A stretch of DNA of 64,000 nt, from assembly GCA_016927555.1 (NCBI GenBank), contig JAFGML010000021.1:9508-73507 (forward strand), written 5' to 3'. This DNA comes from Thermoplasmatota archaeon. GTDB lineage: Archaea > Thermoplasmatota > E2 > DHVEG-1. The position numbers were made by a program, and so were the translations under genes. Below the pieces are notes generated by a model. That model saw nothing but the letters and a program-made list of their open reading frames with translations, was not told the origin of the DNA and made no database searches. Of the stretch, positions 38,933-59,207 are shown one piece after another; position 1 is the stretch's first letter; each line of letters opens with the position of its first letter.

Positions 38933-38942
38933 AATCTGGATT

Positions 38943-40841: not shown

Positions 40842-40844
40842 TCC

Positions 40845-41699
40845 ATGAAAAACCAACAGAACAACAAGAACAGATCACATCATCACACTGCTCAACCGAG
40901 CAATCCAACGAATAATGAGGTAGAGAGGCGACATCAGGAGGGCTACTCAGGCACTATCGGTTTGCGAGAATTAAATGTGTACTACTCTCAGAAGCATGCG
41001 ATTATCGATGTTTCCATGGATATCTTGGAAAAGAAGGTGACCGCATTTATCGGCCCAAGTGGATGTGGAAAAAGCACCCTCCTCCGGGCGCTGAACCGCA
41101 TGAACGATGAAATTGAAGGATGCCGAACAGAGGGAAAAATACTGTGGAAAGGCGTTGACATCCTTGACGTAACCGTTGATCCTGTAGCGCTGCGTCGGAA
41201 AGTCGGCATGGTGTTTCAGAAACCAAACCCGTTTCCAAAATCTGTCTATGAGAACATTGCTTATGGGCTAAAAATCCATGGCATCCATGAGAAGAAGACC
41301 CTGGATGAGCTGGTTGAAAAAAGTTTGAGAGCAGCAGCACTCTGGGATGAAGTCAGTGATCGATTGCATGAATCTGCTATGAGTCTCTCAGGAGGGCAAC
41401 AGCAACGCTTGTGTATCGCTCGTGCCCTGGCCATAGAACCTGAGGTAATCCTTATGGATGAACCCTGCTCTGCCCTTGATCCGATTGCGACAGCAAAAAT
41501 CGAGGATCTCATCCAAGAGTTGAAAAAAGACTACACCGTTATTATTGTAACCCATAACATGCAACAGGCAGCTCGAGTAAGTAATTATACTGCGTACATG
41601 TACCTTGGCAAGATGATTGAATTTGGGGAGACAAAGCAAATCTTTGAGCACCCGCGAGAGGAGCTCACAGAGAATTATATCACAGGACGATTTGGATAG
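40845..41699 (+). CDS. pstB: Phosphate ABC transporter ATP-binding protein PstB (set 1)
   Basis: Walker [10 protein letters not shown], signature [14 protein letters not shown], Walker [14 protein letters not shown]-terminus YITGRFG. Confidence 0.9.
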
Positions 41700-41709
41700 G
41701 TGAGAAGCT

Positions 41710-42360
41710 ATGGTTGAGAAGTTTCATGTGGAGTTAGAAGACCTCAAGCAAGATGTCGCGAAAATGGCAGAACTTGCGATCTTTATGCTTTCGAACTCTG
41801 TAGACGCCTTCAAAAAACTTGATGTCGAGCAAGCAGATCTCGTCGACTCAAAAAAGAAGGAACTTGCTGAGATAAAAATCACCAATGAAGAGGAGGCATT
41901 GCAGTTAATCGCCTTATATCAGCCCATGGCTCGAGACATGCGGACGATTGCCAGCTGTTTGAAAATGATTACGGATCTCTATCGTATTGGGAGGTATGGA
42001 AAAGATATCGCGAAGGTTACTAGAGAGATTTACCCAGGACCCCATATTAAAAAAATCATTAGTCTGCCACATATGAACCAGCTCGTGTGTGGAATGATTA
42101 CTGATGCACTCACCGCGTTTCGCACAGGGAATCTCTCCCTGCTGAAAGATTTCACAGAACGAGATAATGATGTCGATGAGCTGCGCTATTCGATTTTCCG
42201 TGAGTGTATTTCCTACATGATGGAAGACCCAAAGAACATCACCATTTGTACTCATTACATCATGGTCGCCCGGTACTTGGAGCGTTGTGGTGACCATGCC
42301 TGCAACATGGCTGAAGAAGTGCATTACATCGTGACTGGAGAACGGATTGAGCTATCATGA
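41710..42360 (+). CDS. phoU: Phosphate signalling modulator PhoU
   Basis: 216 aa with two PhoU repeats (YRIGRYGKDIA and ERCGDHACNMAE). Sits directly after pstB. Confidence 0.85.
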   Translation: MVEKFHVELEDLKQDVAKMAELAIFMLSNSVDAFKKLDVEQADLVDSKKKELAEIKITNEEEALQLIALYQPMARDMRTIASCLKMITDLYRIGRYGKDIAKVTREIYPGPHIKKIISLPHMNQLVCGMITDALTAFRTGNLSLLKDFTERDNDVDELRYSIFRECISYMMEDPKNITICTHYIMVARYLERCGDHACNMAEEVHYIVTGERIELS

Positions 42361-42845
42361 AGCAGACCGTCTTGTTTATTTGCTACCATAATTCTGCTCG
42401 GTCTCAGATGGCAGAAGCATTCCTCAAGACATTGTATCAAAATCGATTTGAGGCAGCTAGTGCCGGAGTAGAACCGACGCAGGTAAATCCCTATGCTATC
42501 GATGTGATGAAAGAAGTTGGTATCGATCTTTCTTCGTATCGATCAAAGAGTATCGAGGAGTTCCGAGGACAGGTATTTGATTACGTGGTGACAGTGTGTG
42601 ACCAAGCTCAGGAGAAGTGTCCGTTTTTTCCTGGGAAAACAGTACTGCACCAAGGGTTCCGTGATCCTGCAGTTGTTCAGGGTCCTTTCGAAGAAACCAT
42701 GACAGTCTTTCAGCAGGTCCGCGATGAAATACAAACATGGATTACCAAGACATTTGGAGCTGATGATGTACACTCCCAAGTACAAGAATTTACTGTTGAA
42801 GTTTCAGCATGGAAAAAATCATCTGCTTTAGGTGAGAATCAGTGA
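42357..42845 (+). CDS. arsC: Arsenate reductase / low-molecular-weight phosphotyrosine phosphatase family (thioredoxin-coupled ArsC type)
   Basis: CX5R P-loop VLFICYHNSARSQMAE plus the downstream Cys pair VCDQAQEKCPFFPG. Its ATG overlaps the phoU stop (ATGA). Confidence 0.75.
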   Translation: MKQTVLFICYHNSARSQMAEAFLKTLYQNRFEAASAGVEPTQVNPYAIDVMKEVGIDLSSYRSKSIEEFRGQVFDYVVTVCDQAQEKCPFFPGKTVLHQGFRDPAVVQGPFEETMTVFQQVRDEIQTWITKTFGADDVHSQVQEFTVEVSAWKKSSALGENQ

Positions 42846-42903
42846 ATAGATCTAAGCATGAAAACTGGTGTTTTTTTCCGCTGATGAGCAGTAAGTATAT
42901 AGG

Positions 42904-42969
42904 TCTATATAGAAAATGGAGTTTATATTGATAATTTATTTATGTATAGAGAAAATAAAGATGTATAGA
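42904..42969. promoter_or_regulatory. TCTATATAGA palindrome plus two TATAGA half-sites upstream of AbrB-PhoU copy 2
   Basis: 10-bp perfect palindrome at 42904-42913. TATAGA at 42955-42960 and 42964-42969. Confidence 0.5.
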
Positions 42970-43096
42970 CGAACTAGTCCTAACTCAAGGAACTGGAGCG
43001 AGTACCTGTGGGGGACGTGGTCTCTCCAGCAAAAGACTTGACTGAGAGAAGCAGAGAATAGGCATGCGCAACTGCATGCGATTAGGGGAACTACAT

Positions 43097-44107
43097 ATGG
43101 AAACTCGTAAAGTGCAAATAACAGGCAAATCAACATATATTATTTCACTTCCTAAAACATGGGTCAACAAGGTAAAAATACGCAATGGTAACAGTGTTAT
43201 TTTGATACCACGCTCTGATGGAACATTACTGATTAATCCAAAACTCAATGAGACAAAAGAGGTATCCAGCAACGCTATCGCGGTAGACACCCTCGATATG
43301 GAAACCTTGTTTAGGAAGTTCATCGGGGCGTACCTCGCTGGCTTTGACGTCATTGAAATCAACAGCTCTGAGAAGATGTCCCCGGCGGTTCGTCAGCAGA
43401 TTCGTCGGATGACTCAAAGCGTCATTGGCCCTGAAATTATCGATGAAACCAGTACCTCAGTGAAGATACAAGATCTGCTGGATTCAAGCGACCTGTCCAT
43501 GATCCAGGGGCTGAAACGGATGTACGTGATCACCCGCGGGATGCATCGGGATGCAGTCATCGCTTTGGAGCAACGAGATACGGAGCTTGCGGAGGATGTT
43601 GAATCCAGGGACAATGAAGTCGACAAGTTTTACTGGATGATCGCCAAGCAGTATAATCTCGTCCTTAATGATATGTTTTATGCAGATAAAATGAATGTGA
43701 AACCTCAAGAGGTGCTAGGCTACCTGTTGGTTGCGCGTTCTATTGAGCGTATTGCAGATCATGCGAAACGACTCGCAAGCAACGTACAACTCTTGAAGGG
43801 GAAAATCGATATTCTGCCTAGGATATTAGAGGCGAGCGATGCGATTTTAAAGGAGTTTGACGAGGCGGTGAACGCGTTTCATCGAAATAAATTTGAGCAT
43901 GCCAACCAGGTCGTCATCAAGGCACGGTCTCTTGGAAAGCTCACCCAGCAGTTGACGCAGGAGATTTTAGGATTAAAACTAGATGCGGCGACAATAGTCT
44001 CCCTGGCGTATATCGTGGATAGTCTTGAGCGGACGCGGGCGTACGTGCTCGATATCGCGGAGACTGCGATTAACCATCAGTTTACGACAGCGATGGTAAC
44101 CACTTAA
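43097..44107 (+). CDS. AbrB/SpoVT-domain + tandem PhoU-domain regulator (copy 2)
   Basis: METRKVQITGKSTYIISLPKTWVNKV plus two PhoU repeats (ERIADHAKRLA, ERTRAYVLDIAE). ATG 43097 follows TAGGGGAA. Confidence 0.75.
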   Translation: METRKVQITGKSTYIISLPKTWVNKVKIRNGNSVILIPRSDGTLLINPKLNETKEVSSNAIAVDTLDMETLFRKFIGAYLAGFDVIEINSSEKMSPAVRQQIRRMTQSVIGPEIIDETSTSVKIQDLLDSSDLSMIQGLKRMYVITRGMHRDAVIALEQRDTELAEDVESRDNEVDKFYWMIAKQYNLVLNDMFYADKMNVKPQEVLGYLLVARSIERIADHAKRLASNVQLLKGKIDILPRILEASDAILKEFDEAVNAFHRNKFEHANQVVIKARSLGKLTQQLTQEILGLKLDAATIVSLAYIVDSLERTRAYVLDIAETAINHQFTTAMVTT

Positions 44108-45506: not shown

Positions 45507-45845
45507 TTATGTGGGGTGTGACAAAACGGTTTCTTCTTGTTGAGATCCTCGTGTTTGGGAGGGGCCTCGTGTTTTGAGTGTTCGGTAGTAGAGTGAGAAG
45601 GCAAACCAGAGGATACCGCATCCTAAAATGGCAAGGGTGAGCCAGTCAAAGAACAAATCAAAGGTGTTTGGAGTGTACGAAGTCCCTGGTGCAAAGAGGC
45701 CTTGGTAGAGCATGCGTGCCCCATGCCCAATCATGATAGCACCAGAAAGTGTCAATAACAGGATGGTGACGTAGGATTTCCTCTTCTGTGACGTGGTGTT
45801 TTTCTGCTTCTTGTTTTGAGTGTTATGCATGGTATGCAAGAGCAT
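45507..45845 (-). CDS. Hypothetical two-TM membrane protein
   Basis: 112 aa with a basic N-terminus and two hydrophobic helices. Confidence 0.4.
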   Translation of the reverse strand: MLLHTMHNTQNKKQKNTTSQKRKSYVTILLLTLSGAIMIGHGARMLYQGLFAPGTSYTPNTFDLFFDWLTLAILGCGILWFAFSLYYRTLKTRGPSQTRGSQQEETVLSHPT

Positions 45846-46037
45846 CCCTCAATGTTCCCATCTACATATCCTATATAGTGATATTGTTTCTATAGTTTTC
45901 TATATATGGTGAAGAGAAGAGTGTTCTACTGGTTTTTTCCTCGCTCTCCACGACGCATGTCACTACTTAGCATTCATTGTATTTAAATGCAGCGAGGAAA
46001 AGTAGCATGATGAAAAAAAATTTGATGAGTGATTTAT

Positions 46038-46244
46038 TTAATCGAAAGAGAGGACCGGAAGGGTAGTAACGATGGCAACATCTGCATATCGACGCACTTG
46101 TTCAATACCTTCGAGACAGTCGTCTTCAGTGGCATACCCTGCGCTTTGGACGATGATGCCATTTGCAGGGGCTTTGAGGTGGAAGTACCACTGTTCGTCC
46201 TCTTCTGATTGCCAGTATTCATAGCGTGCTAACATACGGTTCAT
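46038..46244 (-). CDS. DUF1508 (YegP-like) small protein
   Basis: YEYWQSEEDEQWYFHLKAPANGIIVQSAGYATEDDCLEGIEQVRRYA fits the YegP repeat pattern. The start among 46265, 46244 and 46235 is uncertain. Confidence 0.6.
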   Translation of the reverse strand: MNRMLARYEYWQSEEDEQWYFHLKAPANGIIVQSAGYATEDDCLEGIEQVRRYADVAIVTTLPVLSFD

Positions 46245-46349
46245 GTGTCCTGTTTTGTTGTACAACAGTCAAAAGAAGTCAAACATGATAAAGTCTTTCC
46301 ACATACAATATGAAGGCTCTATGAGTCTATAGTGTTCTATTGTTTTTCT

Positions 46350-49300
46350 TTAGTGTTTCATCATGCGGGAGGCACGATAGCTTACTAATCGCGCAATAGC
46401 ATTCAGAGCAAGTATCATGATAATTAGGATAAAAGCCACAGCATATATTTTTTCGTATAATGTAGGCCATTGAGCACTAACACTATAAAAAAGATAAATC
46501 ATGTTTGACATTGATGCTGTGGGCTGGAAAATCGATGTTGCGACATGTGCAGAATATCCTGCGGTGAACATGACTGCAGCTGTTTCCCCAATTGCTCGTC
46601 CCATCGAAATGATCGCACCACTTGTAATTCCTGGAGCCGCTGGAGGAAGAATAACTGTTCGAATCGTTTGCCATTTTGTTGCACCAAGAGCAAGTGCTCC
46701 TTCTTGAAATTCCCGAGGGATTGATTTAATTGATTCTATAGAACTTCGAAGCAGAAGAGGTATTACCATTATCCCAAGGGTGAGTCCTCCAGCAATCATT
46801 GATATCTTAAACTCAAGGAAAATCACAAAGAACATAAAACCAAATGCACCAAAGACAATGGATGGTGTACTTGCTAAAGTGTCTGAGGCAAAGAGAATGA
46901 TTTTCGTGATGATATTGTCTTTCTTGATATATTCTTGAATGTAAATCGCGGCACCAATGGACAGTGGAGCAGCAAATGCAAGGGCTATAGCAACAAGTTG
47001 GAGGGAACCTGTGATTGCATTAGCAAAACCTCCCCCTAAACCGCCCATTTCTTCTTTTTGAAAGAGATACTCGGGTTTTAATGCTAATCCACCCTTGACA
47101 ATAATATCCTGGATTATCGCAACAAGAAATAAAGTGACAGTTATTGCACAAAGAAAAAGAATGATTTTTATGATTTTTTCTGATTGAAGCGCTTTTTTTG
47201 TTGAAAATGTACGAATGAGATCTTTAAATTGACTTCTAGATGACTCATATGTAGCGTCTTCAGAGGTTTTTTTATGGGTAGAATCAATGATTACGAAATT
47301 TTTTGAAATTTTATCAGACACTATCTTAAATTTTTTTGCTGATGAAAGAGCTTGGATATTTTGTGTGTTTTTCATGAGTTTGTTTGATTTTTCTTTTTTT
47401 CGTTGCTTGAGTTTTTCTTTAAGGAATAAAAAAATACGATGACTATAGTTATGCTTGTTTTTTCTATGAATAGATAAGATGAGAACATTAAGTATGAAGA
47501 TAAGGAAAAAGAGGACAATTCCTATCGCAAAGAGAGCATGCCGTATTTGGTCGTATGAGTACCCCCAACCAAGTGTTGCCGCGATAACGGAAGTCATCGT
47601 GCCACCTGAATCAAATAGAGAACTTGGTATTTGATAAAAAGCACCCATAATCATGAGAACCGCCATGGTTTCTCCAATCGCTCTGCCAGTTGCAAGAATA
47701 ATCGACGTGATGATGCCGGATTTTGCCTCAGGTAATATGATATGTTTTACGGTCTGCCAGCGTGTCGTGCCTAAAGCAAGTGATCCTTCTTTGAGGTCTT
47801 TTCTGACAACATGAATAGCGTCTTCGGAGAGTGTAATAATAATCGGAAGTATCATGATACCAAGAACGATTGAGGCGGTTAGAACATCATTTCCTATGCG
47901 TGTTGTTGTTTTAAAAAACCAGATGTATTCACCTAGTGTGCTGGTTATGAGCGGATAAAGAGAGTGTGCAAGAAACGGTCCGAAGGTAAAAAAACCCCAA
48001 AGACCAAAAATAACTGAGGGGATTCCTGCAAGAAGCTCGTAGAGAGGCTTTAAAATCATTCTTATTTTTCTTGGGCAGAACTCAGATAGAAAGATAGCGC
48101 ATCCTAAGCCAAGAGGAGCAGCAATAAAGATTGCAATAGTTGTGGTAAGCAATGTTCCTACGATGAATGGTAATATTCCAAATGTTGGTTGTGTTTTTTC
48201 AAGTTCGATGAGTAACTCGGTTTCAAGTGTCTCATCTTGAGTTGATTCTGGGGATTCGACGATAAACGTGAGGTGTAGGGTATCGGTTGATTGATTACCA
48301 ATGTTTATTGTTCCATCACCGATTAGTAACATTGTTCCGTTTTGAAGAAGAGTTGTTTTCCAGGTATCTCTACTGCTGGTTACGGTGAATGTCGCAAATC
48401 GTTGCACCTCATTGAGCGTTATTGTGTAGTTAACTGATGAACCAGCGATGATGTTTAATCTGTCCGTATCTACTTTGATTAAATTTTGGTTTTTGAAATG
48501 AAATAGTATGTGTGATGTGTCTGTTACTTGAGGATGGTTTGTCGAATTTATCGTTACTAGTATGTCATAGACTCCATCTTGAAAACTGACGAGTCGCGGG
48601 TTGACTGTCAGATTGAGTGATGCACCTGCTTCAAGAGTAATTTGTGCTGATGATGAGTTGTAATTCCAGTTCTCAGTGAGTTCTGCTATAGATGGACGGA
48701 AATAGTCCGGAGCATGAAGGGTGATGGTGTAGGTGTCTGAATACTCTCCAGTATTTTTCAGCTGCAGGAATGCTAGTTGAAATCCTAGTTCGTCTCCTGT
48801 GGCGACGAGGCTGATTTGACTTGGAGAGAGATCAACTCGATACTCAGAGGCGGTGATTTGTAACGGGATAATTTTATTATAAGATGAGGATTGTGAGGTT
48901 ACTGTTATTGATCCTTGATAAATATTCTCACCAGCGGGTATGAAGACACTAAGGTTCATTACCACGGTGTCATTGGGTATAAGAGCAATTGGTGAGTGCG
49001 GCGCAAGAGAATAGCTTAGGTTTTGTTCAAATTGTATATCTATGGCTATGTCATCAGTGGTTCCTCCTCGATTACTGATTGTAAATGGGATGGTCACCCA
49101 AGCATCAGGGGCAGCGAAAAGGGAGGTATCCTCTAGGTGTATGTGAAGGTCGTAGGCAACAATATGGGTGATCAGTGTTGTTGATTCTGTTTTTCCTAGG
49201 CTATATGATGGTTGCCATTGTGTCCCGGTGATAAATTCAGCGGGCCCGGTTGTATCGTAGAAAGCAGGCATGCCTTCGCGTACAATAAAAAGAACGATTA

Positions 49301-49718
49301 AAAAAACTGCTAAGGTTGTTGAAAGTGAAAGCAGGAAAAGTAATTTTTTTATGATGCGTTCTTGAAAGATCAGATAGCAAAGGATGAGCGCCTCGATGCT
49401 GATGAAAGTAACAATCAACGTGCCTAAAGCTATTGGAGAGGGGGTATAGCCTTGGAATAGGTTTTGTGGATGAAAAAGTATTTGTTCAAGAACGAAAAGA
49501 AAAATTTGGAATTGGAAAAGCAAAAAGAATAGCTTTATTTTTTTTTTGTAAAAAAACATGATAATTAATCCGATTTCTGTGAGCATGATAAGTAGGATGA
49601 ACATGGGATTCATGACAAATATGTTTGGCAAAAATATTATTATTAAAAAAAGAATATTTATGATAAACAGTATCCATTTTGATTGTAGTATCTCTGTAAA
49701 ACCCATTGCATCTGTCAA
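46350..49718 (-). CDS. Giant fused PstC-PstA phosphate permease (set 2) with an extra N-terminal TM bundle and a ~340-aa insertion in the first extracytoplasmic loop
   Basis: 1122 aa. The PstC landmark FITGTQWQP is separated from QPTFGILPFIVGTLL by residues ~171-509 (nt 48192-49208), versus only a few residues in set 1. EAA loops KEGSLALGTTRWQT and QEGALALGATKWQT. A Lys-rich linker joins the halves. Confidence 0.8.
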   Translation of the reverse strand: MTDAMGFTEILQSKWILFIINILFLIIIFLPNIFVMNPMFILLIMLTEIGLIIMFFYKKKIKLFFLLFQFQIFLFVLEQILFHPQNLFQGYTPSPIALGTLIVTFISIEALILCYLIFQERIIKKLLFLLSLSTTLAVFLIVLFIVREGMPAFYDTTGPAEFITGTQWQPSYSLGKTESTTLITHIVAYDLHIHLEDTSLFAAPDAWVTIPFTISNRGGTTDDIAIDIQFEQNLSYSLAPHSPIALIPNDTVVMNLSVFIPAGENIYQGSITVTSQSSSYNKIIPLQITASEYRVDLSPSQISLVATGDELGFQLAFLQLKNTGEYSDTYTITLHAPDYFRPSIAELTENWNYNSSSAQITLEAGASLNLTVNPRLVSFQDGVYDILVTINSTNHPQVTDTSHILFHFKNQNLIKVDTDRLNIIAGSSVNYTITLNEVQRFATFTVTSSRDTWKTTLLQNGTMLLIGDGTINIGNQSTDTLHLTFIVESPESTQDETLETELLIELEKTQPTFGILPFIVGTLLTTTIAIFIAAPLGLGCAIFLSEFCPRKIRMILKPLYELLAGIPSVIFGLWGFFTFGPFLAHSLYPLITSTLGEYIWFFKTTTRIGNDVLTASIVLGIMILPIIITLSEDAIHVVRKDLKEGSLALGTTRWQTVKHIILPEAKSGIITSIILATGRAIGETMAVLMIMGAFYQIPSSLFDSGGTMTSVIAATLGWGYSYDQIRHALFAIGIVLFFLIFILNVLILSIHRKNKHNYSHRIFLFLKEKLKQRKKEKSNKLMKNTQNIQALSSAKKFKIVSDKISKNFVIIDSTHKKTSEDATYESSRSQFKDLIRTFSTKKALQSEKIIKIILFLCAITVTLFLVAIIQDIIVKGGLALKPEYLFQKEEMGGLGGGFANAITGSLQLVAIALAFAAPLSIGAAIYIQEYIKKDNIITKIILFASDTLASTPSIVFGAFGFMFFVIFLEFKISMIAGGLTLGIMVIPLLLRSSIESIKSIPREFQEGALALGATKWQTIRTVILPPAAPGITSGAIISMGRAIGETAAVMFTAGYSAHVATSIFQPTASMSNMIYLFYSVSAQWPTLYEKIYAVAFILIIMILALNAIARLVSYRASRMMKH

Positions 49719-49841
49719 GTATCAGGTTTATATAATAGTCTTGTGTATAGATTATATACTGCTCTATAGAGATATATAAAAAAAAAATGAGGAATGATGA
49801 TTTGTTATTATTGTGAGAAGAGTGAATTTTTAATGTTTTTG

Positions 49842-49896: not shown

Positions 49897-51039
49897 TTAG
49901 TAGAGGCTAATGTATCCGCTTTGTTCGCAGATTTTTTTGTTCATCTCTGGGCCAAGGACAAAGTCGATGTAGACTTTTGCGTCGCCTTTTGGTTTTCCAA
50001 CGGTGACATACAAGAGTTCTCGGGCACCATCATAGAAGGTTGTTACACCAGAGCGAATGTTTTTTGCAAAATTAGTGTCGTTTGGGTCTATTAGGGTTTT
50101 AACTGTTCGTCCAGCATAGGGTATCATCGTCACAAGGCCAGTTGAGGTGGCAACAGCACCATACGAGATGAAACCAAGAGCATCTGCATCCTTTGATATC
50201 GCCTGTATAAGCTCAGCGTTACCAGTTGCATGGATGGCAGCGATGCCTCGTGATTCAAGATCGACTTTTCCTTCGTTGATCATAGAACAGAAGGTTTCCT
50301 CTGTACCTGAGACTTCAGATCGGTCATAAATCTTTACTTCTTCACTACCTGTGCAGTTATCAAACATATCGGTACGTATATTTTTTGTTGGAACTTCATC
50401 CCATGAAATATACCCATTTGCGTCGCGATCTCTAACACCATCGGTCTGATTACTCTTCCAATTTGTTGATAATTGGTCCCATGTTGCAGTTCCTTCTCTC
50501 CCGTTATATGCATAGACATCTCGAACAGTCATAGCATGGATGCTTGTTAACCCGTGAGTATTTGCATATGGGACAGCAATAACTACTGCATCATATGCAA
50601 TCAGTGTGGTAAAAAGATCGATACCAATATCTTTCTTGCCATCGCGATTCAAATCAGGTAACGAAGTCATTTTTGCTTCTACATCTGACCTGGATGATGC
50701 ACTACCAATATCAATGGTTCCATATCCAACTGCAGTGACTCCTGCACCGGTTCCACCCTGTTGGAAAGAAATCTTATAGTTTGGGTTCTGTGCTTCGAAA
50801 AACTGTGCAGCAACAGCTGTGAACGGATATACAGTTGTACTTCCACCAATAGTCATTGCTGCTTGTAACTCACCAGCACCACCGGTTTTTGTTTGAACGT
50901 CACTCTGCCAGCCGCTCTGCCAGACATAGAACGCCCCAGCTGATCCAACAGCAACGAGGACCAACATAAGGGTGGCTATGATTGGTGAGACCGCCTGGGC
51001 GTTCTTCACTAGCCTTTTTCCTATTGTTTTTGTGTTCAT
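49897..51039 (-). CDS. pstS: PstS-family phosphate-binding protein (set 2) with a class III (type IV pilin-like) signal peptide
   Basis: ATG 51039 lies 6 nt after TGGAGGCA. N-terminus MNTKTIGKRLVKNAQAVSPIIATLMLVLVAVGSAGAF. PstS blocks GGSTTVYPF and GGTGAGV...TIDIGSASS. EF-hand-like loops DLNRDGKKD and DRDANGYISWDE. Confidence 0.8.
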   Translation of the reverse strand: MNTKTIGKRLVKNAQAVSPIIATLMLVLVAVGSAGAFYVWQSGWQSDVQTKTGGAGELQAAMTIGGSTTVYPFTAVAAQFFEAQNPNYKISFQQGGTGAGVTAVGYGTIDIGSASSRSDVEAKMTSLPDLNRDGKKDIGIDLFTTLIAYDAVVIAVPYANTHGLTSIHAMTVRDVYAYNGREGTATWDQLSTNWKSNQTDGVRDRDANGYISWDEVPTKNIRTDMFDNCTGSEEVKIYDRSEVSGTEETFCSMINEGKVDLESRGIAAIHATGNAELIQAISKDADALGFISYGAVATSTGLVTMIPYAGRTVKTLIDPNDTNFAKNIRSGVTTFYDGARELLYVTVGKPKGDAKVYIDFVLGPEMNKKICEQSGYISLY

Positions 51040-51294
51040 TTTTTTTGCCTCCAAATATTTTTCTACTTTGGATTGCATCCCCCAACACCGTCAGGTTCAC
51101 GAAATCCAAACCACATGCAGTATTTTTCTGCACTTACTTTGCGCCAACGAACCGGTTTTTTAATAAGCTTATTCAAATAAAAAAAATAGAATGAGTAGAT
51201 GACACGACTACCACTCACGGCTACATACAAAAACTGGAACTATATAGGGTATAGTGTCTCTATACAACATCTTTTTAACACACAGTTTTCATAG

Positions 51295-53091
51295 ATGGTT
51301 CCAGAGCAACAAAAGGAGGCATTCTGTATTCCACGCTTTGAACATCTCAGCAATCTCTTCAAGAAAAAAGACGACTCTGAGCAACAAATCACCCGACTGC
51401 TTGATACCAAATACCGAGATCTTCTGAAAAAGAAAGCTGAGTCACTCGAACAACACTTCCTCCCAAAAGAAGAAATCTCAGAAAAAATCATTCAACAAGA
51501 AGAAATCAGCTTCATGAGAAGAGAATTCGAACGAAACAAAAGCACCGTCAACATCACGTATCCTGTCAACCCACCCTTCGCTTTTGTGAACATCCTCTTC
51601 AACGAACAAGCTGGGGAATTCCACTACCTGCTCAAAGAACCAAAACTCAAAGAAGCTGAGGTACACCACCTTGACCTCATCAAACAAAAAATAGAGGCAA
51701 CCATGGATGAAGAAGACCTTCCCATCGACGAGGAAGGAACCTTCACTGTCTCAAAGGAACTCAAAGCATACCTACAGAAACGATTCCTCGATGTCATCGA
51801 CTTGTACGACATTGCTGTTGATGAGAAACGACGACCCATTCTCTTGTATTACCTACAGAAAGACCTCCTTGGACTTGGTAGAAGCGACGCAGTCATCAAA
51901 GACCTGTTCGTCGAAGACATCGGCTGCAATGGGCCAAAAACACCCCTCTACCTGTACCATCGTGTGTTTGGCTCCATGAAGACCAACATCACCTACCCTA
52001 GTGAACTTGAACTGAACAAGTTCATCCTGAAGCTGGCGCAAACCTCTGGCAAACACATCAGCGTCTATCAACCAATCCTAGATGCAGTCCTTGCTGACGG
52101 CAGTAGAATCAACCTCACCTTAGGTTCTGAGGTCACAAGGAAAGGCTCGACGTTCACGATACGGAAATTCAGCTATGACCCGATCTCACCGATTGACTTG
52201 CTCAGGTTCGGCTCAATCTCCACCCTGCAGCTGGCGTACTTCTGGCAGCTCATCGAACATAAGAAATCCATTCTGATGAGTGGGGGAACCGCTTCAGGGA
52301 AAACCACGCTGCTCAACGCCCTGTGCATGTTCATCAGACCAGAGGATAAAATCGTCTCCATAGAAGACACCCCAGAGATCCACATCGACCATCAGAACTG
52401 GATCCAATCAGTGGCACGAAAAGGATATGGGAAAATGATGGGGGTGTCTGGCATCTCAGGGATATCAGGAATCTCAGGAATCTCCTCCTCAAGCGGCGGG
52501 CCTGGGTCTATTGATATGTTTGATTTACTTGTCGCTGCCCTGCGTCAACGACCAGAGTACATCATCGTTGGGGAAATACGAGGCAGAGAAGCCTTCACCC
52601 TCTTCCAAGCCATCGCCGTTGGCCACTCCTCAATGAGCACGGTGCATGCTGGGTCTATCGAAGAACTCCTCCACCGGGTGGAAAACGAACCGATGAACAT
52701 CCCCCGTGTTTTGTTCCAAAGCATTGACGCGGTCGCCTTCCAAGGACAAGTCATCGCCAACGGCAAACGCGTCAGACGAGTCAAAAACATAGTGGAAGTC
52801 CTTGAAATCGACCCTGATACCAACAACCTGCTCACGAACACCGCGTTCCACTGGAACCCCAAGGGTGACTTCTTCCACTACAACGGCAGAAGCTTCATTG
52901 TGGAAAAAATCGCTCGAGACACAGGGAAAGACTCCGATAAAATCATGGAGGAGCTCACCAGAAAAGAACACTACCTGCAACTCATGAACAAGAAAAACCT
53001 GACGTACTACAAAGACGTCAGCAAAGCCATCAACATGTACTATGTCGACCCACTGAAAGCAACCATGGACCTTGAAGCAACCCTGAGGTAA
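51295..53091 (+). CDS. FlaI/ArlI-PilB-type secretion ATPase (type IV filament assembly)
   Basis: Walker A SGGTASGKTTLLNAL, Asp box IVSIEDTPEI, Walker B/His box RQRPEYIIVGEIRGREA...GHSSMSTVHA. Unusual GVS(GIS)4SSSGGPGS insert. Confidence 0.85.
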   Translation: MVPEQQKEAFCIPRFEHLSNLFKKKDDSEQQITRLLDTKYRDLLKKKAESLEQHFLPKEEISEKIIQQEEISFMRREFERNKSTVNITYPVNPPFAFVNILFNEQAGEFHYLLKEPKLKEAEVHHLDLIKQKIEATMDEEDLPIDEEGTFTVSKELKAYLQKRFLDVIDLYDIAVDEKRRPILLYYLQKDLLGLGRSDAVIKDLFVEDIGCNGPKTPLYLYHRVFGSMKTNITYPSELELNKFILKLAQTSGKHISVYQPILDAVLADGSRINLTLGSEVTRKGSTFTIRKFSYDPISPIDLLRFGSISTLQLAYFWQLIEHKKSILMSGGTASGKTTLLNALCMFIRPEDKIVSIEDTPEIHIDHQNWIQSVARKGYGKMMGVSGISGISGISGISSSSGGPGSIDMFDLLVAALRQRPEYIIVGEIRGREAFTLFQAIAVGHSSMSTVHAGSIEELLHRVENEPMNIPRVLFQSIDAVAFQGQVIANGKRVRRVKNIVEVLEIDPDTNNLLTNTAFHWNPKGDFFHYNGRSFIVEKIARDTGKDSDKIMEELTRKEHYLQLMNKKNLTYYKDVSKAINMYYVDPLKATMDLEATLR

Positions 53092-53097: not shown

Positions 53098-54027
53098 ATG
53101 AAACAACGCCGTACGAAGAAAGAGCCTTCTTTGAAAAAACCAGTCAGTGCACTCCTCGTGGAACGCTACAAAGCGTTCAGCTACCGTCTCTTCGGCAAAC
53201 ACGTGTTCACTACAGAGAAGACTGGGGCATTGTCTGAAAAACTCAAAATGGCAAACATGCGTTACACACCATCGGTATTCTACTCAACACTGCTGACCAC
53301 AGGCATACTCATCACAGTTCTTTCACTCATCGTCTTCAGCTTCCTGTTTCATTTTCTCCTAACGATAGACATGTGGCTTTTGTACTCCCTTGCGCTAACC
53401 GCGGTGACTACGACAGTAACCCTTGGGATGTTCTTCTTCGTCATGAACTCGAAAATCTCCTCACGGAAATCGCAAATCGACCACGAACTGCCCTTCGTCC
53501 TCAGCGAGCTGTCCATTCTCGCAAGCACGGGGCTGACCCCCATTAAAATCATGCGGCACATGGCACAGCGTCACGGTAACCCAGCGATGACCTCAGAATT
53601 CAGAAAAATCATATCAAAAATCGACGTGGAAGGAAAAGACATCATCACCGCGATGAGTGAAACCGCAAAGGAAACACCCTCGCCACTGTTCCGGGAGACA
53701 CTCTGGGACCTCTGCAACATGATTCACCAGGGAGGAGACCTGGATGCATACCTACGTTCAAAGGCAGACATCACCCTGCAGCTGAAGCGAGATATCCAAA
53801 AAGAATTCATAGAGAAACTGGCGACCTACTCCGAGATGTACTCAAGCTTGGTCCTCATCGGCGTACTGTTTCTTGGGATTGCAGCATTCTTGCTTGATGC
53901 GATGCAATCCACAATAGGACCACTCACCGCTGACTCCTTACTGCTCATGCTCTCATACTTAATCATACCTGCGGTCATCATTGGTGTGAATGCTATCGTC
54001 TCTCTGGCGTATGCGAAGAGCGGGTGA
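53098..54027 (+). CDS. Type IV filament platform protein, half-size (single T2SSF domain; FlaJ/TadB-like)
   Basis: One T2SSF-type cytoplasmic domain (ELPFVLSELSILASTGLTPIKIM...GGDLDAYL) flanked by TM segments. Confidence 0.7.
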   Translation: MKQRRTKKEPSLKKPVSALLVERYKAFSYRLFGKHVFTTEKTGALSEKLKMANMRYTPSVFYSTLLTTGILITVLSLIVFSFLFHFLLTIDMWLLYSLALTAVTTTVTLGMFFFVMNSKISSRKSQIDHELPFVLSELSILASTGLTPIKIMRHMAQRHGNPAMTSEFRKIISKIDVEGKDIITAMSETAKETPSPLFRETLWDLCNMIHQGGDLDAYLRSKADITLQLKRDIQKEFIEKLATYSEMYSSLVLIGVLFLGIAAFLLDAMQSTIGPLTADSLLLMLSYLIIPAVIIGVNAIVSLAYAKSG

Positions 54028-54034: not shown

Positions 54035-55432
54035 TTGCGCTTTCACACCATCTCCTTGAGTGTAGCATTCTTCCTTCTCCTCTGTCTTCCCTCCAGCATC
54101 ACCGCACAAGAAGATACCACTCCACCAGTGATTATTAGTGTTTCCCCTGCCGAGGCCACAACCATAGGTAACCAAACACCACAAATCATGGTTCAGTACG
54201 CAGATGAATCAGACATCGACCTGAGCACTGTTAGAATCATCGTCGATCAAATAGATGTCACAGAGTGGGAGGAAACCTCGATAACAGACACCTCTGTTTT
54301 GTATAAGGTTCCGCAGATCCTCAGACTCCAAGACGGTAATCATTCCGTGTTTATTGAGGTGGCAGATACACAAGGGAACCGTGCGACAAAAACCTGGGTG
54401 TTTCTCGTTGACACAACACAACCAACACTCCAAGGAGAAAGCCTGGACCTCTTCACCATCGTCACCTTTTTCATCTACGGAGCACTCATCAGCGCAGTCC
54501 TCTTCATTTTTTATATTTTATACCTGAGGAAAACACGGAGGTTCACGTTCAGAAAGTTCTTTGCACAACATCCCATACAAAAAGAAATCATCACCCTCTA
54601 CATTCCCCTCATCCTTGGTTTTTTTATCATCCTCTTTGGTCTTGCTTGGACCTCAAGAAACCTGCCTGACATCCCGTTTTCCCCGGAGTACGTCTTTTCT
54701 GCCGGAGTGCTCATTGCCCTTGGACCATTCACACTATCATCGATAGCTGAAAAACGCACTATCAATCGGTACGAGCAAGCGTTCGCACAGTTTCTCTTTG
54801 AAATGGCAGATGCTATGCGCGGGGGTCTTGACCCCACCAAAGCACTCATTGAGCTTGCAAAGGGAAATCAAGGAATCCTCAGAGACCATCTGAAGAAAGC
54901 AGCGGAGAACATCAAACTCGGTCGACCCTTTGATGAGGTGATGCAAGCCATGGTCCGTCCTATTAAAAGTGATTTGGTGAAACGGTATGCGACTTTGATT
55001 GGTGACACCTCAAAAATCGGTGGGGAAACCTCACTGGTCATTTACAGAACCGCAAAGGATATGGATGACTTTATCAAAATCAACCAGGAGCGCAGACGGC
55101 AGCTCACCGCTCAGGTCACCACGATTTACATCGCCTTTGCCGTCTTACTTGTCATCCTGTATCAGTTGATCACGATGTTTCCTTCAATGGGGTCATTGAA
55201 CCTCTCTTTGCTTGGTGCCACTGATTTGGATTCCACAGAGACAAGCTCATCGATCATCCGCATGAGTAGTGAAACCATGAAACGCAGGTTCCTTCATCTC
55301 ATGATGATTAACTCCCTGGGCACAGGGACGCTCATGGGGATGCTTGTTGATGGAAAAATCAAATACGGGCTTATTCATTCACTCGTCCTGATTAGTATAT
55401 CAGTGGTGTTCTTCGCACTTCTCATCCTTTAA
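54035..55432 (+). CDS. Type IV filament platform protein, half-size (T2SSF domain) with a Sec-type signal and an N-terminal Ig-like ectodomain
   Basis: TTG start 7 nt after GGGTGA. Signal LSVAFFLLLCLPSSITAQ. A ~110-aa beta-rich domain (PPVIISVSP...TWVFLVDTTQPT), TM segments, then a T2SSF block (FEMADAMRGGLDPTKALIELA...GRPFDEVM). Confidence 0.7.
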   Translation: MRFHTISLSVAFFLLLCLPSSITAQEDTTPPVIISVSPAEATTIGNQTPQIMVQYADESDIDLSTVRIIVDQIDVTEWEETSITDTSVLYKVPQILRLQDGNHSVFIEVADTQGNRATKTWVFLVDTTQPTLQGESLDLFTIVTFFIYGALISAVLFIFYILYLRKTRRFTFRKFFAQHPIQKEIITLYIPLILGFFIILFGLAWTSRNLPDIPFSPEYVFSAGVLIALGPFTLSSIAEKRTINRYEQAFAQFLFEMADAMRGGLDPTKALIELAKGNQGILRDHLKKAAENIKLGRPFDEVMQAMVRPIKSDLVKRYATLIGDTSKIGGETSLVIYRTAKDMDDFIKINQERRRQLTAQVTTIYIAFAVLLVILYQLITMFPSMGSLNLSLLGATDLDSTETSSSIIRMSSETMKRRFLHLMMINSLGTGTLMGMLVDGKIKYGLIHSLVLISISVVFFALLIL

Positions 55433-55476: not shown

Positions 55477-56736
55477 TTACTCAGTGATTGCTCCTAGGAA
55501 ATCACAATAGGGGCAGCGAAGTATTCCCTCTGTATCATTGAGTGTTGTGGTAAAAGTCTTCTGACACATAGGGCAGGAGACTTCAACAGCAGGAGAGGGT
55601 AGCCGAATAGAGGTTACCTGTGCGTCCTTTGTATTTCTCACAGCTGAGGATTTTCTTGGTGAGGCCCGAGGTGCCTTGGTCTTTTGTGATGAAGTTTTTT
55701 TATGAGACATAGTAGTTTTTTGTGTATTTGAGGATGGTTCAGACGATGCTGTTGTCGTTATTTTCTGTATGGGTACACACACCAACTCAGGAGCCACAGC
55801 ATCCTCCGGAATAGTGATTTTCTGTTCTTTTACCATGGAGAGGACTTCACCAACGACGACTTCATCAATCATGATGGAACGCTTCTTTGCAGCGTAATCA
55901 ATGACAACATCAGCAAGCTTGAGGAGATGACGAGGGTTGCCAGCCACATCTAAATTGAGAAAAGCGACGCCCTCGGGGGTGAACGGGTACAAAGGGTCCA
56001 CATCATCAACGAGTCGTTTCTCTAAGAGTCTTTTGGCAATCATCAACTGTGCTTCTTCATCGCTGAGCGGTGGGATTTGGATTTTTCGGTTTATCCGTTC
56101 ATGCAGGGATTTGTGCTGCTCCATGAGTGATTCGAAATACTGCTGATCACTGCTGATCATAATCATCACGCCTTGGTCAATGTGGTCAATCATGACGTGC
56201 AGTGTGTGTAAGAACCGCTCAGCATCCTCCACCCGTGCAAGGTGATGAAAATCATTTATTAACAGAAACGAAGGGGCATTATTGTTTAAAGCATCAGCGA
56301 TGATTCTACCGGCTTTATCAGGATCGTACTGCTTCTCTGCTTTCTTAAGTTTCTTTTTAACCGACTTGTACCACTTCGGAGCAGAGAACAGACGAGTGAA
56401 GAAACCAAGGTGGCTTTGAAGAAGGAGTAGATGCAGGATGCCTTCGACGACCCAGCGGGTCTCAAAAGTCATGTTCTGAAACACATAGAACGCGTTGTTG
56501 CGTTTTGCTTCATTTGCCACCAGCAGCAGTCGCTCGGTTTTCCCAGCACCAAGCCCACCAAGCACTGCAACAACCGCTTTGTTTTCCTTGTAGAATACTT
56601 CCTCGCGCATTCGAGCTAAATCTTCATCAACCCGCTGAACGACATGGAAGATGTCAACGTTCTCCAAACTCTCACTGGAGAGATCTCGGAACGGATTGCT
56701 ACTTAACCCATAGCGTTCATATCCTGTTTTCTGCAT
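55477..56736 (-). CDS. ExeA/AAA_22-like P-loop ATPase with a disordered Ser/Thr/Lys-rich linker and a C-terminal zinc ribbon
   Basis: YGLSSNPF N-terminus, Walker A GGLGAGKTERL, Walker B-like LLINDFHH, C-terminal CPMCQ...CPYCD. Confidence 0.6.
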   Translation of the reverse strand: MQKTGYERYGLSSNPFRDLSSESLENVDIFHVVQRVDEDLARMREEVFYKENKAVVAVLGGLGAGKTERLLLVANEAKRNNAFYVFQNMTFETRWVVEGILHLLLLQSHLGFFTRLFSAPKWYKSVKKKLKKAEKQYDPDKAGRIIADALNNNAPSFLLINDFHHLARVEDAERFLHTLHVMIDHIDQGVMIMISSDQQYFESLMEQHKSLHERINRKIQIPPLSDEEAQLMIAKRLLEKRLVDDVDPLYPFTPEGVAFLNLDVAGNPRHLLKLADVVIDYAAKKRSIMIDEVVVGEVLSMVKEQKITIPEDAVAPELVCVPIQKITTTASSEPSSNTQKTTMSHKKTSSQKTKAPRASPRKSSAVRNTKDAQVTSIRLPSPAVEVSCPMCQKTFTTTLNDTEGILRCPYCDFLGAITE

Positions 56737-56752: not shown

Positions 56753-57367
56753 CTACGTGACCCGTGCGCGAAGATCGATGCTGATCTTTTTGCCATCAAA
56801 GGTGTAGTAAATATTATCATTGAAGGAATCACGGTTCATCCATTTGGAAATCCGAATATACCGTGCGATTCCCTTTGTCGTCTCTTTGGATAAAAAATGA
56901 ATAATACCATCAGCAAGGTGACCTATGGTGATCTGGACTTTCTCATCAAGCATCCCGTACTCCAGTGAGAGCAGGAGAATGGTGTTGTGTTGTTTGCACA
57001 GACTATCCAGCTCCTCAACAATGGTTCGGACTTCTGATAAGGTCTTGTCAAGAACCAAATAGGAAAACGAGTCGATGATAAGCACCGCATCTCTCCTGAT
57101 GAAATCCTTCCAGTGGCGATGGGAACGCTCTTCAACAATTTGACACTTGGTTGAATCGGTGTACTGCGACAGTTCAGCGACAACCTCTTCTTTTGCCCGC
57201 GAGGCGATGTACACAACCTCTTTTTTGTGTTTCACGGCAAGCCCTGCTACAGTTTGAATAAAGATCGTCTTAATGGGGTCAATCGTGCCTTGGACGACAA
57301 CAATGTTCCCATTTGGGATTTCTTGTATGAATTCGTTTAATCCAGCTATGTGAATAGGAATCCCCAT
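56753..57367 (-). CDS. KaiC/RecA-superfamily FlaH(ArlH)-like protein with a degenerate Walker A
   Basis: GLNEFIQEIPNGNIVVVQGTIDPIKTIF (GxxGxGKT degraded to GTIDPIKT) and a VLIIDSFS Walker B-like strand. ATG 57367 preferred over the longer track ORF. Confidence 0.55.
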   Translation of the reverse strand: MGIPIHIAGLNEFIQEIPNGNIVVVQGTIDPIKTIFIQTVAGLAVKHKKEVVYIASRAKEEVVAELSQYTDSTKCQIVEERSHRHWKDFIRRDAVLIIDSFSYLVLDKTLSEVRTIVEELDSLCKQHNTILLLSLEYGMLDEKVQITIGHLADGIIHFLSKETTKGIARYIRISKWMNRDSFNDNIYYTFDGKKISIDLRARVT

Positions 57368-57452
57368 AGGAGCCAATATCCTCTTTTTTATTATCGCTAA
57401 GAATACTATATTTCTTAAAGATATTGAACATAATCTATGGACCGCCTTAGTT

Positions 57453-57462
57453 TCTATATAGA
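57453..57462. promoter_or_regulatory. TCTATATAGA palindrome in the divergent flaH-like / pilin-like intergenic region
   Basis: The same perfect 10-bp palindrome as at 42904. A further TATAGA at 57483-57488. Confidence 0.5.
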
Positions 57463-57529
57463 CATACATACCATGCATACATTATAGACATCATTTTTAA
57501 GATACGGAAAAAAGTACGTAAATCTACCT

Positions 57530-58423
57530 ATGAGAAAGTGTACTTACGAGGAGCAAGCAGTCTCTATTATCATTGGAGCGTTAATGCTTACCGTCATTGT
57601 CGTGTCAGCAGCAACAGCGTTTGCAGTGTTCACCAGTCAAAAACAAAAGGAGCTGCAGGAAGCACAGTACGCCTCCTTACAACGAGATCTCGAACAGCTA
57701 GCCATTACAAGGATCTCCACCATCCACTACAACAGCTCAAATCATTTAGAAAACATTAGTTGTAGCATCGTCAGTCTCCACGCAGATGACTCACGCATTA
57801 TTTCAATGAGTCTGAACGGCAATTACCTCAGGTATTTTCACCTCACCAGGCAAGACTACACACTAGAAGAGTGGAAAATCAATTCAACAACAGGTGAATA
57901 TGTCTTACAGAGTGTAACAGACAGTCAGGGTGCCGTGATCTATAATGGAAGCACAAGTTTTAACACATCGAATGAAAAATATTCATACTACCCCTTGACA
58001 GTGTTATCTCGAGAACGAGTGCTTCTTACTATAGACAATGCATCGAGCACAAGTGTATTCCTTATTCGGCATATTCTTAGCAATGATGCAATTACTTTGT
58101 CGGTGTACACAAGTTTAACCAATGAGTTTTCAAAGACGTTCTATCCACCGACAGCAATCATCCGTCTCATTACTGAGTCACAGTGGAATAGCACAAGTAA
58201 TGACTATGAATCAGTCATCATCTTGGATGGCTCCCTCTCAGATCATCCTTCACTAGATGCCTACATTGTATCATGGATATGGACAGTCGATGGAAATCCA
58301 CTGAGCACATCGGGAAGAAAAATCCGTGCACCAGATAGCCTTCTCATAGGGAACCATAACATCACCTTGAGTGTCACTGATAATTTTGGCATGAACAGCA
58401 CCAGCACAATCACATACCCCTAG
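57530..58423 (+). CDS. Type IV pilin-like protein (class III signal peptide) with a C-terminal PKD-like domain
   Basis: N-terminus [34 protein letters not shown] (archaeal pilin N-domain type). Many N-x-S/T sequons. C-terminus [10 protein letters not shown]...[12 protein letters not shown] (PKD-like). Confidence 0.7.
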
Positions 58424-58439: not shown

Positions 58440-59207
58440 ATGGCACTGAAGAAAAAACCTAAAATCACCATCAACAATCTGAATCTGTGGTATGGCGACA
58501 AACAAGCACTCATCAATGTTTCGATACAGATACCGGAACATAAAATAACCGCACTCATCGGCCCCTCCGGATGCGGAAAATCCACACTCATCCGCTGCTT
58601 AAACCGTATGAATGACACCATCGATACCTGTAAGACAAGAGGTGAAGTACATCTTGATGGACACAATATCTACGCTGATGATGCAAACGTCGTGGCAATA
58701 CGTAGAAAAATCGGCATGGTGTTCCAGAAACCAAACCCCTTCCCAAAAAGTGTGTACGACAACATCGCATATGGACCGAAAATGCAAGGAATTAAAGACA
58801 AAAAAATTCTTGACCCGCTGGTCGAACAAACCCTGAGGAAAGCAGCGCTTTGGCAGGAAGTTGTTGATCGATTACATGAATCAGCTATGGGATTGTCGGG
58901 AGGTCAACAGCAGCGACTCTGCATCGCACGTGCCTTAGCTATTGAACCGGAGGTCATCCTCATGGATGAGCCCTGCTCCGCCCTTGACCCCATAGCGACT
59001 GCAAAAATAGAGGACCTCATGGTAGAGCTAAAAAAAGATTACACGGTCGTCATCGTCACTCATAACATGCAGCAGGCAGCACGCATTAGCGATTACGCTG
59101 CGTACATGTACCTCGGCAAGATGATCGAATTTTCATCAACAAAACAACTCTTTGAAAACCCTAAAGAAGAACTCACCCAGAACTATATCACCGGGAGATT
59201 TGGATAA
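58440..59207 (+). CDS. pstB: Phosphate ABC transporter ATP-binding protein PstB (set 2)
   Basis: Walker [10 protein letters not shown], signature [15 protein letters not shown]-terminus YITGRFG. Very similar at protein level to PstB at 40845, but with many synonymous differences. Confidence 0.9.

Follow-up and report, generated by a model that had tools for sequence, protein, structure and literature searches.

How the pilin-type substrate-binding proteins (SBPs) of archaea feed ATP-binding cassette (ABC) importers, and whether the 'bindosome' is a real structure, is the question raised by a phosphate transport (Pst) locus in DNA from a Thermoplasmatota archaeon (assembly GCA_016927555.1, contig JAFGML010000021.1). 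The whole stretch of 64,000 nucleotides that was analysed is called the window below, and all coordinates are positions in it. In the Sulfolobales bindosome, a type-IV-filament (TFF) ATPase and platform are thought to assemble SBPs at the cell surface for an ABC importer (PMC3047682; bioRxiv 10.64898/2026.04.22.720090). The window carries two Pst systems, set 1 and set 2, and the permease of set 2, pstCA2 (46350..49706 on the minus strand, stop codon 46350-46352), is a single 1118-residue PstC-PstA fusion with two extra parts at the site of SBP contact, which suggest, as a hypothesis that can be tested, how a transporter and its tethered SBP come together. As one conserved locus holds a pilin-type PstS, a filament ATPase and platform, a pilin-like protein, a PstB and regulators, it provides a self-contained test bed for the bindosome idea. 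On balance, we incline to read set 2 as a second, specialised Pst importer adapted to a pilin-type, tethered PstS (PstS2), with a tower resembling the P2 domain of MalF and an adaptor within the membrane.

The permease combines PstC and PstA in one reading frame

The open reading frame (ORF) at 46350..49718 on the minus strand has 1122 codons when counted from the TTG at 49718, the length given in a preliminary description made from the letters alone, and it contains no internal stop codons. The N-terminus MGFTEILQ is common to the protein P0002 and to the frame that precedes the called start of the gene in a related locus, L001, and because of this conservation the start was placed at the ATG at 49706, so that the described fusion stood and its length was corrected to 1118 residues. 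The NCBI copy of the protein (P0001, annotated as PstC of 'MAG: Candidatus Thermoplasmatota archaeon') has 1078 residues, its start being 40 residues too short. Both halves scored above the cutoffs of their NCBIfam equivalog models: the PstC half matched TIGR02138 at 447.6 bits (cutoff 196.45), the match being broken by an insertion into three stretches of which the best covered residues 508-754, and the PstA half matched TIGR00974 at 381 bits (cutoff 193.45) over residues 848-1115. A full-length AlphaFold2 model built with 22 sequences (predicted local distance difference test, pLDDT, 77.7; predicted template-modelling score 0.63) had the Escherichia coli PstC and PstA chains as its best Foldseek matches (9k3s, 9k3y and 9k3x; target-normalised template-modelling (TM-) scores 0.69-0.82), with scores of 0.69-0.72 and 34% identity for the PstC chains 9k3s_B and 9k3y_B and of 0.82 for the PstA chain 9k3s_A. 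By profile score and predicted fold, pstCA2 is a genuine PstC-PstA fusion, in agreement with its first assignment. Phosphate is the probable substrate of set 2, judged from motif conservation in PstS2 and from family membership.

From its N-terminus, on the minus strand throughout, the protein comprises a family-specific bundle of transmembrane (TM) helices (residues 1-121; 49344..49706), PstC TM1 with the proximal part of the P1 loop, ending in FITGTQWQP (residues 122-166; 49209..49343), the insertion, the PstC core from TM2 to TM6 with the EAA coupling region (residues 506-746; 47469..48191), a Lys-rich cytoplasmic linker (residues 747-843; 47178..47468) and the PstA half (residues 844-1118; 46353..47177). 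A second family-specific addition of 13 residues, SLYPLITSTLGEY (nt 47925-47963), lies in the next outward loop of PstC, and the PstA half bears the family-specific motif STPSIVFGAFGF. The linker, expected to be roughly 100 residues long, was found to be ~97 residues and is predicted to be disordered (pLDDT <50); its length across the family ranges from 51 to 204 residues. Fusion of PstC with PstA is the norm in this genome, being found also in the 632-residue PstCA of set 1.

A 339-residue ectodomain sits at the tip of the PstC P1 loop

The insertion occupies residues 167-505 as numbered from the ATG (339 residues, nt 48192-49208), exactly where a segment of ~340 residues had been claimed: the last residue of FITGTQWQP is 166 and the first of QPTFGILPF is 506. 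Only a few residues stand at this position in the PstCA of set 1 (38943-40841), as already described for that landmark, and in the nearest insertion-less relatives. AlphaFold2 predicted the insert to be all-beta, with three sandwich modules, at a pLDDT of 76.7 when the insert was modelled alone (four sequences) and mostly of ~80-90 in the 22-sequence full-length model. Module 1 (residues 167-291; 48834..49208, minus strand) is predicted as an immunoglobulin (Ig)-like beta-sandwich with a conserved N-x-G-G motif (N212, G214). Module 2 (residues 292-406; 48489..48833, minus strand), likewise an Ig-like sandwich, holds the most strongly conserved motifs of the insert, namely NTG (318-320), FRPSI...WNY..SS (336-353), in which the sole short helix of the insert falls, and PR (370-371). 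Module 3 (residues 407-505; 48192..48488, minus strand), again Ig-like, returns the chain to PstC TM2. The best conserved motifs of the insert (NxGG, NTG, FRPSI...WNY..SS and PR) all lie in modules 1 and 2, and N212, G214, N318, G320, F336, P338, W347, P370 and G378 were invariant or nearly so across the family.

Foldseek searches with the insert returned tandem Ig-like proteins (ASH/PapD-like, Cep192 SPD-2, fimbrial subunits and RbmA) at probability 1.0; the global TM-scores were low, which chains of several domains would lead one to expect. The insert is thus predicted to be three tandem Ig-like sandwiches. The modules had been likened to CARDB or Ig-like repeats; AlphaFold2 and Foldseek upheld the Ig-like part, and CARDB membership was rejected, as PF07705 gave no match at E<=10 in the window insert and none at E<=0.01 in any of 22 family members. 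No Pfam family matched the insert, for which only weak matches to Cep192_D3/D4 and to HYDIN/VesB Ig domains were obtained, and Pfam and PDB sequence searches with the insert, the N-terminal bundle and the linker gave nothing significant.

In an HMMER alignment of the PstC half, with the insert swapped for a short linker, the insertion point fell at E61-P65 of E. coli PstC, the tip of the P1 loop, which includes D63. The P1 and P3 loops of PstA and PstC reach into the PstS cleft in the electron cryo-microscopy structures of E. coli PstSCAB, where the C-lobe of PstS sits over PstC and PstC D63C cross-links to PstS K167C (PMC12976172). Because the insertion aligns at E61-P65 and D63 is cross-linked to PstS, the tower grows from a spot that touches the SBP.

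The N-terminal bundle and the placement of the ectodomain outside the cell

Four extra hydrophobic helices were identified by hydropathy ahead of PstC TM1 (ORF residues 16-34, 39-57, 63-81 and 100-118), matching the account of about 120 extra hydrophobic residues with around four TM helices, and AlphaFold2 placed helices within the bundle at residues 10-28, 34-54 and 57-78. Polar positions within the membrane are conserved at E44 (16/20), Q67 (19/21) and E105 (19/22), and position 64 is W in 17/21 and F in the window protein. The bundle loops KKKIK and QERIIKK are cytoplasmic. Over successive N-terminal loops of the 18 members with complete N-termini, the density of lysine plus arginine alternates as 1.7/0.13/4.1/0.32/2.8/0.19 per 10 residues, a pattern in keeping with a cytoplasmic N-terminus followed by the four extra TM helices, a PstC TM1 that runs from inside to outside, and an insert outside. 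N-X-S/T sequons occur at 3.1 per 100 residues in the insert (230 in 7418 residues) compared to 0.1-0.2 in the membrane parts. Because the solved E. coli structure has the TM1-TM2 (P1) loop in the periplasm, and because of the charge alternation and the sequon density, the insert is placed outside the cytoplasm, as had been proposed.

The architecture is conserved in a family from uncultivated archaea

An exhaustive HMMER search with a profile of the insert against 1.84 billion representative proteins gave 389 matches at E<=1e-3. At least 35 clusters at 50% identity, from independent assemblies, shared the same architecture (about 35 of the top 150 matches; 1030-1223 residues, insert aligned at ~167-497), the rest of the matches being large multi-repeat surface proteins. 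Twenty-two members aligned end to end and were 34-53% identical to the window protein (P0002: 88%), with inserts 20-35% identical, and common to all of them were the N-terminal bundle, the insert, the 13-residue outward-loop addition, the Lys-rich linker and the PstA half. A DNA pattern of the PstA motif, STPSI[VI][FY]GAFGF, retrieved 13 further metagenomic loci, all 13 of them family members. Because the 22 aligned members and the 13 further loci share this architecture across many independent assemblies, an assembly or frameshift artefact behind the long ORF was excluded; artefactual fusion is also disfavoured because set 1 and the nearest relatives likewise have, as a rule, a fused PstCA. 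The family members all come from uncultivated archaea, and they are currently annotated as plain PstC or as 'phosphate transport system permease'. Its retention in at least 35 clusters, with conserved motifs, suggests that the insert is under purifying selection.

A word-indexed protein search with the insertion alone gave zero matches, missing even the identical database protein, and was treated as a false negative; because HMMER found the whole family, word-indexed negatives on such low-complexity, Asn/Thr/Ser-rich queries are untrustworthy. A further word-indexed search with the 22-sequence alignment added only one new protein, which was insertion-less, and a genome-contig search with the insertion alignment found only a 1594-residue repeat protein of Chloroflexia (L004), a generic Ig-repeat match.

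pstCA2 had been described as more AT-rich than its neighbours, and its GC content (0.387) and GC content at third codon positions (GC3; 0.337) are indeed the lowest among the 52 ORFs of the window (window GC 0.463). The foreign origin suspected from this was not borne out: the low GC3 is real, but the GC content of pstCA2 is ambient for its locus in the relatives L001, L005 and L009, so that recent horizontal transfer was not supported as a general explanation, and the whole pstCA2 locus is anciently syntenic. The low GC3, the complete classical pstSCAB-phoU of set 1 only 4 kb from pstCA2, and the locus L010, where TFF and pstCA genes differ in composition from the flanking genes, would each fit the view that the insertion and helices are a near-neutral, lineage-specific decoration with no specific role, belonging to a redundant second Pst system on an AT-rich horizontal cassette. 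We give this view very little credence, because insert, bundle and synteny persist down to 34% identity in loci of 39-60% GC and the ambient GC recurs in several relatives; the conserved motifs inside the insert and the confident AlphaFold2 fold also speak against it.

The permease is paired with a pilin-type PstS

The gene pstS2 (49897..51078, minus strand) lies directly upstream of pstCA2. The N-terminus of its product, ...KNAQA/VSPIIATLMLVLVAVGSAGAFYVW, is a class III (pilin-type) signal peptide, with a weak match to the UpsA pilin N-terminus. PstS2 scored 64 bits with PBP_like_2 and 107 bits with TIGR02136, the latter under the cutoff of 206.6, and the PstS motifs GSTT, GGTGAG, DIGSAS and SGTEETF are conserved in it. 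The preliminary description had called for a survey of whether loop-1 insertions go together with class III PstS; they do so strictly, a PstS with a class III signal standing directly upstream in 10/10 of the loci for which the PstS N-terminus was available (the window, L005, L008, L009, L010, L014, L017, L018, L019 and L023), and all ten PstS proteins carry the motif [KRQE][AG]/[VI]SP[VI][VI]ATL[ML]LV. PstS2 also has two EF-hand-like loops, DLNRDGKKD and DRDANGYISWDE, inside insertions absent from PstS1, and similar loops occur in the L009 PstS (DMNQDGQKD and GPDGEISWEE), which suggests from sequence a calcium-binding decoration on the pilin-type PstS.

Set 1 (within 36772-44107) is a classical archaeal pst operon comprising pstS1, the fused pstCA, pstB, phoU and arsC, and it is flanked by two genes for AbrB(MazE)-PhoU fusion proteins (36772-37776, minus strand, and 43064..44107, plus strand). 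PstS1 has a lipobox-like LLAGC. The locus L024, whose permease P0007 is among the closest insertion-less relatives, resembles set 1 in having a lipobox PstS, the order pstS-pstCA-pstB-phoU and no TFF genes.

This pairing bears on whether the Ig tower could instead be an independent binder of ligands or surfaces (minerals, polyphosphate, organic phosphate polymers or other cells) that concentrates substrate near the gate, the proximity of TFF genes reflecting shared Pho regulation. The insert profile also matches many large multi-repeat, surface or adhesin-like proteins, among its Foldseek matches are RbmA, antigen I/II and fimbrial subunits, which are adhesins or proteins of biofilm matrices, and several promoters of Pst-related genes, that of the pstS2/TFF intergenic region among them, have clusters of TCTATAGA-like motifs. 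We nevertheless judge an independent binder improbable: the most conserved motifs of the insert have no recognisable binding-site signature, no Pfam lectin or carbohydrate-binding module was matched, and such a role leaves unexplained why the insertion goes with pilin-type PstS and the insertion-less paralogues with a lipoprotein PstS.

Filament assembly genes and pstB2 belong to the same locus

Divergent from pstS2 is a gene for a TFF assembly ATPase (T2SSE; ArlI/PilB3/BasE-like; 51295..53091, plus strand), which is 61-72% identical across the family loci and stands beyond pstS in the same divergent orientation in 8/8 loci with enough flanking sequence. It is followed by two platform protein genes of T2SSF/TadC-like type (53098..54027 and 54035..55432, both plus strand), and two T2SSF genes follow in all five loci that reach that far (the window, L005, L008, L009 and L010); in L017 the first is visible before the locus sequence ends. 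At its N-terminus the second platform protein bears an ectodomain that is weakly Ig-like (Big_13/TIG) and is a possible partner of the permease tower. Beyond them lie genes for a P-loop protein with weak AAA_22/STAND matches (55477..56736, minus strand; orthologues in L005, L008, L009 and L010), a KaiC/ArlH-like ATPase conserved in all four long loci (56753..57478, minus strand) and a pilin-like protein (57530..58423, plus strand) with a class III-type N-terminus, EEQA/, a beta-rich, sequon-rich body and, as judged by eye, a PKD-like C-terminus.

Directly after the pilin-like gene comes pstB2 (58440..59207, plus strand; TIGR00972 415 bits, cutoff 343), the dedicated ATP-binding subunit gene of set 2, 7 kb from pstS2 and pstCA2 and beyond the filament genes. 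Set 2, in correction of the preliminary description, has its own pstB; with PstS2 encoded directly upstream of the permease and PstB2 above its cutoff, it has the components of a complete PstSCAB. The filament genes, the pilin-like gene and pstB2, all passed over in that first account, are parts of this one system. Elsewhere in the family, where a pstB is present, it is convergent with AbrB-PhoU, downstream of pstCA. The four long loci (L005, L008, L009 and L010) all contain the KaiC-like ATPase, the P-loop protein, the pilin-like protein and AbrB-PhoU, with PstB in 3/4; the AbrB-PhoU fusion regulator conserved beside family loci is represented in the window by the gene at 43064..44107. The arrangement recurs down to 34-36% PstCA identity, in loci of 39-60% GC.

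So constant a neighbourhood might also mean that the tower and TM bundle anchor the ABC transporter to the TFF platform, or to the surface layer or glycocalyx, fixing the importer at the filament base without the tower binding PstS2. Such anchoring would suit the Ig-like ectodomain of the second platform protein, the TFF genes being far more conserved than the permease ectodomain and yet always adjacent to it, the conserved buried Glu and Gln residues of the bundle, which suit helix-helix contacts in the membrane, and the richness of the insert in sequons, like that of envelope proteins. An anchor is, however, hard to square with an insertion at the SBP-contact loop and not at the periphery of the transmembrane domain (TMD), and we consider it unlikely.

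A proposed mechanism for hand-over from a tethered PstS

Under the reading that we prefer, a specialised importer for tethered PstS2, PstS2 would be made as a type-IV-pilin-like precursor and, because of this, would be membrane- or filament-tethered by the adjacent TFF machinery, forming a phosphate 'bindosome'. The three-module Ig-like tower on the P1 tip would capture the PstS2 head and hold it over the translocation gate, as MalF P2 does for its SBP. The four extra TM helices, with their conserved buried Glu and Gln, would act as an in-membrane adaptor that may contact either the TFF platform or the hydrophobic helix at the N-terminus of PstS2. Energy for transport would come from PstB2, and the AbrB-PhoU proteins are probable regulators. 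That PstS2 docks on the tower, that the TM bundle plays such a part and that a filament displays PstS2 we infer from fold, position and gene context; what the analysis showed is the architecture, topology and fold class of the permease, the place of its insertion with respect to the SBP-contact loop, and the strict co-occurrence of the genes. A stronger form, in which the TFF machinery displays the pilin-type PstS on a short pseudopilus, the tower holds its head and the adaptor takes the pilin helix or the platform, would make the whole a filament-coupled ABC importer and a single phosphate-scavenging organelle; this form we put forward only tentatively, as somewhat less probable than not. If it holds, cells that lack a confined periplasm pass substrate from SBP to permease by means of a dedicated architecture, one that bacteria are not known to have.

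Several points weigh against the preferred reading. The docking of a filament-tethered PstS2 on the ectodomain, already suggested in the preliminary description, is a plausible but putative contact, consistent with position and context. PstS of E. coli sits directly on the TMD surface, and a bulky tower on the P1 tip could hinder docking unless it is swung aside. The full-length AlphaFold2 model has one continuous helix (DSSP) over residues 91-151 (pLDDT 84-88), which spans the fourth extra TM helix, the QERIIKK turn and PstC TM1 and so conflicts with the hairpin that the four-TM bundle deduced from hydropathy and the positive-inside pattern needs. The TFF genes might encode a pilus system of general use, linked with Pst through co-regulation only. 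L008 has no pstB in the 23 kb retrieved of its locus, and in the window the TFF genes separate pstB2 from pstS2 and pstCA2. The taxonomy comes from the window protein only (NCBI: Candidatus Thermoplasmatota), and the breadth of the family is uncertain.

Comparison with known transporters and filament systems

With E. coli PstSCAB (9k3s, 9k3x, 9k3y; PMC12976172), pstCA2 shares the six-TM core in each half, the P1 loop between TM1 and TM2, the EAA region and the PstB partner. It differs from E. coli PstC and PstA in that its halves are fused through a disordered linker, that the P1 loop carries the 339-residue triple-Ig insertion, and that four N-terminal TM helices and the 13-residue addition in the next outward loop are present; the partner of the E. 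coli permease is a soluble periplasmic PstS, and that of pstCA2 the pilin-type PstS2. In these respects pstCA2 is an unexpected elaboration of a textbook transporter.

MalF of the maltose importer MalFGK2 has an Ig-like domain in its P2 loop, between TM3 and TM4, that binds MalE throughout the transport cycle (PMC6906923). Both proteins are type I importer permeases with extra N-terminal TM helices and a large Ig-like outward domain in the equivalent loop. MalF TM3 and TM4 correspond to core TM1 and TM2, MalF having two extra N-terminal TM helices, and it is between the same two core helices, in an outward loop, that pstCA2 has its large folded insert. The insert of pstCA2 has three modules (339 residues) compared to one (~180 residues) in MalF P2, and four extra helices compared to two; no sequence similarity between MalF and pstCA2 was seen, and the probable phosphate substrate and the archaeal host set pstCA2 apart. 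By analogy, the tower would bind its SBP in the manner of MalF P2, and a principle that earlier work described as peculiar to the maltose system would be extended to phosphate uptake and to archaea.

The locus is similar in concept to the bindosome of Sulfolobales (BasEF/BasABC with sugar-binding proteins that have class III signals; PMC3047682; bioRxiv 10.64898/2026.04.22.720090). SBPs with class III signals are common to both, for sugar there and phosphate here; TFF genes lie physically inside the transporter locus in the pstCA2 family, whereas the filament and transporter loci of Sulfolobus are separate, and the extra permease domains of pstCA2 are not reported for the Sulfolobus systems (PMC3047682; bioRxiv 10.64898/2026.04.22.720090). 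Orthology to BasE and BasF was rejected, since the TFF genes of the window scored far below the cutoffs (BasE 184 bits, cutoff 1000; BasF 34.7 bits, cutoff 1300), and we regard them instead as homologous TFF components. A survey of 4364 archaeal class III-signal SBPs, which usually lie beside ABC genes and away from TFF clusters, makes no mention of phosphate or PstS (bioRxiv 10.64898/2026.04.22.720090). The window cluster also has its ATPase, two TadC/T2SSF genes, KaiC-like ATPase and PilA-like pilin gene in common with euryarchaeal adhesion-pilus machineries (Makarova et al. 2016, PMC4858521), and the words 'phosphate', 'PstS' and 'ABC' have zero occurrences in the text of that census of archaeal type IV pili (PMC4858521). 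Archaellum models scored below their cutoffs on the cluster (ArlI/FlaI 399 bits, cutoff 550; ArlH 32 bits, cutoff 215; ArlJ 65 and 36 bits, cutoffs 550 and 400), and model scans flagged no archaellin among the cluster ORFs, no search aimed at archaellin genes having been made; on these grounds a degenerate archaellum was rejected. Literature searches found nothing relevant on PstS with a class III signal or on PstC or PstA with Ig-like insertions. The pstCA2 family is thus present in databases but unrecognised, and a hard-wired phosphate bindosome appears to be undescribed.

Further features of the locus

Between set 1 and pstCA2 lies a gene for a small membrane protein of 112 residues (45507..45845, minus strand), which recurs near the family pstCA in L001, L008, L010, L012, L013 and L018 and whose membership of the system is uncertain. 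A DUF1508 gene (75 residues, 46038-46265) directly downstream of pstCA2 recurs in L001 and in L006/L007. Past pstB2 are an ORF for a PP2C-type phosphatase (59152-59928), whose TTG start lies within the end of pstB2 so that the two share 56 nt, and a gene for a calcineurin-like metallophosphoesterase (60131-60904); neither was found in the other family loci.

Clusters of two to four palindrome-like motifs (TCTATAGA, CTATATAG or GTATAGA) were seen at 37813-37853, 42904-42963, 45871-45889, 49745-49764 and 51240-51259, in the promoters of pstS1/phoU, AbrB-PhoU, the small membrane protein gene and pstCA2 and in the divergent pstS2/TFF-ATPase region. Across the window the motif was not enriched (27 compared to 19.6 +/- 5 in shuffles). 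Almost all multi-copy clusters fell in intergenic regions related to Pst; they may represent a Pho operator or be no more than TATA boxes.

In L001 (9956-13971), L005 (19293-23210), L008 (17016-22277) and L009 (18057-22229), genes a few kb from the Pst/TFF cluster encode secreted proteins of very large size and with several domains. These proteins have PKD, CARDB or Cadherin-like repeats, one of them with 5'-nucleotidase and metallophosphatase domains and another with an STT3/AglB domain, and they could be further phosphate-scavenging or envelope components.

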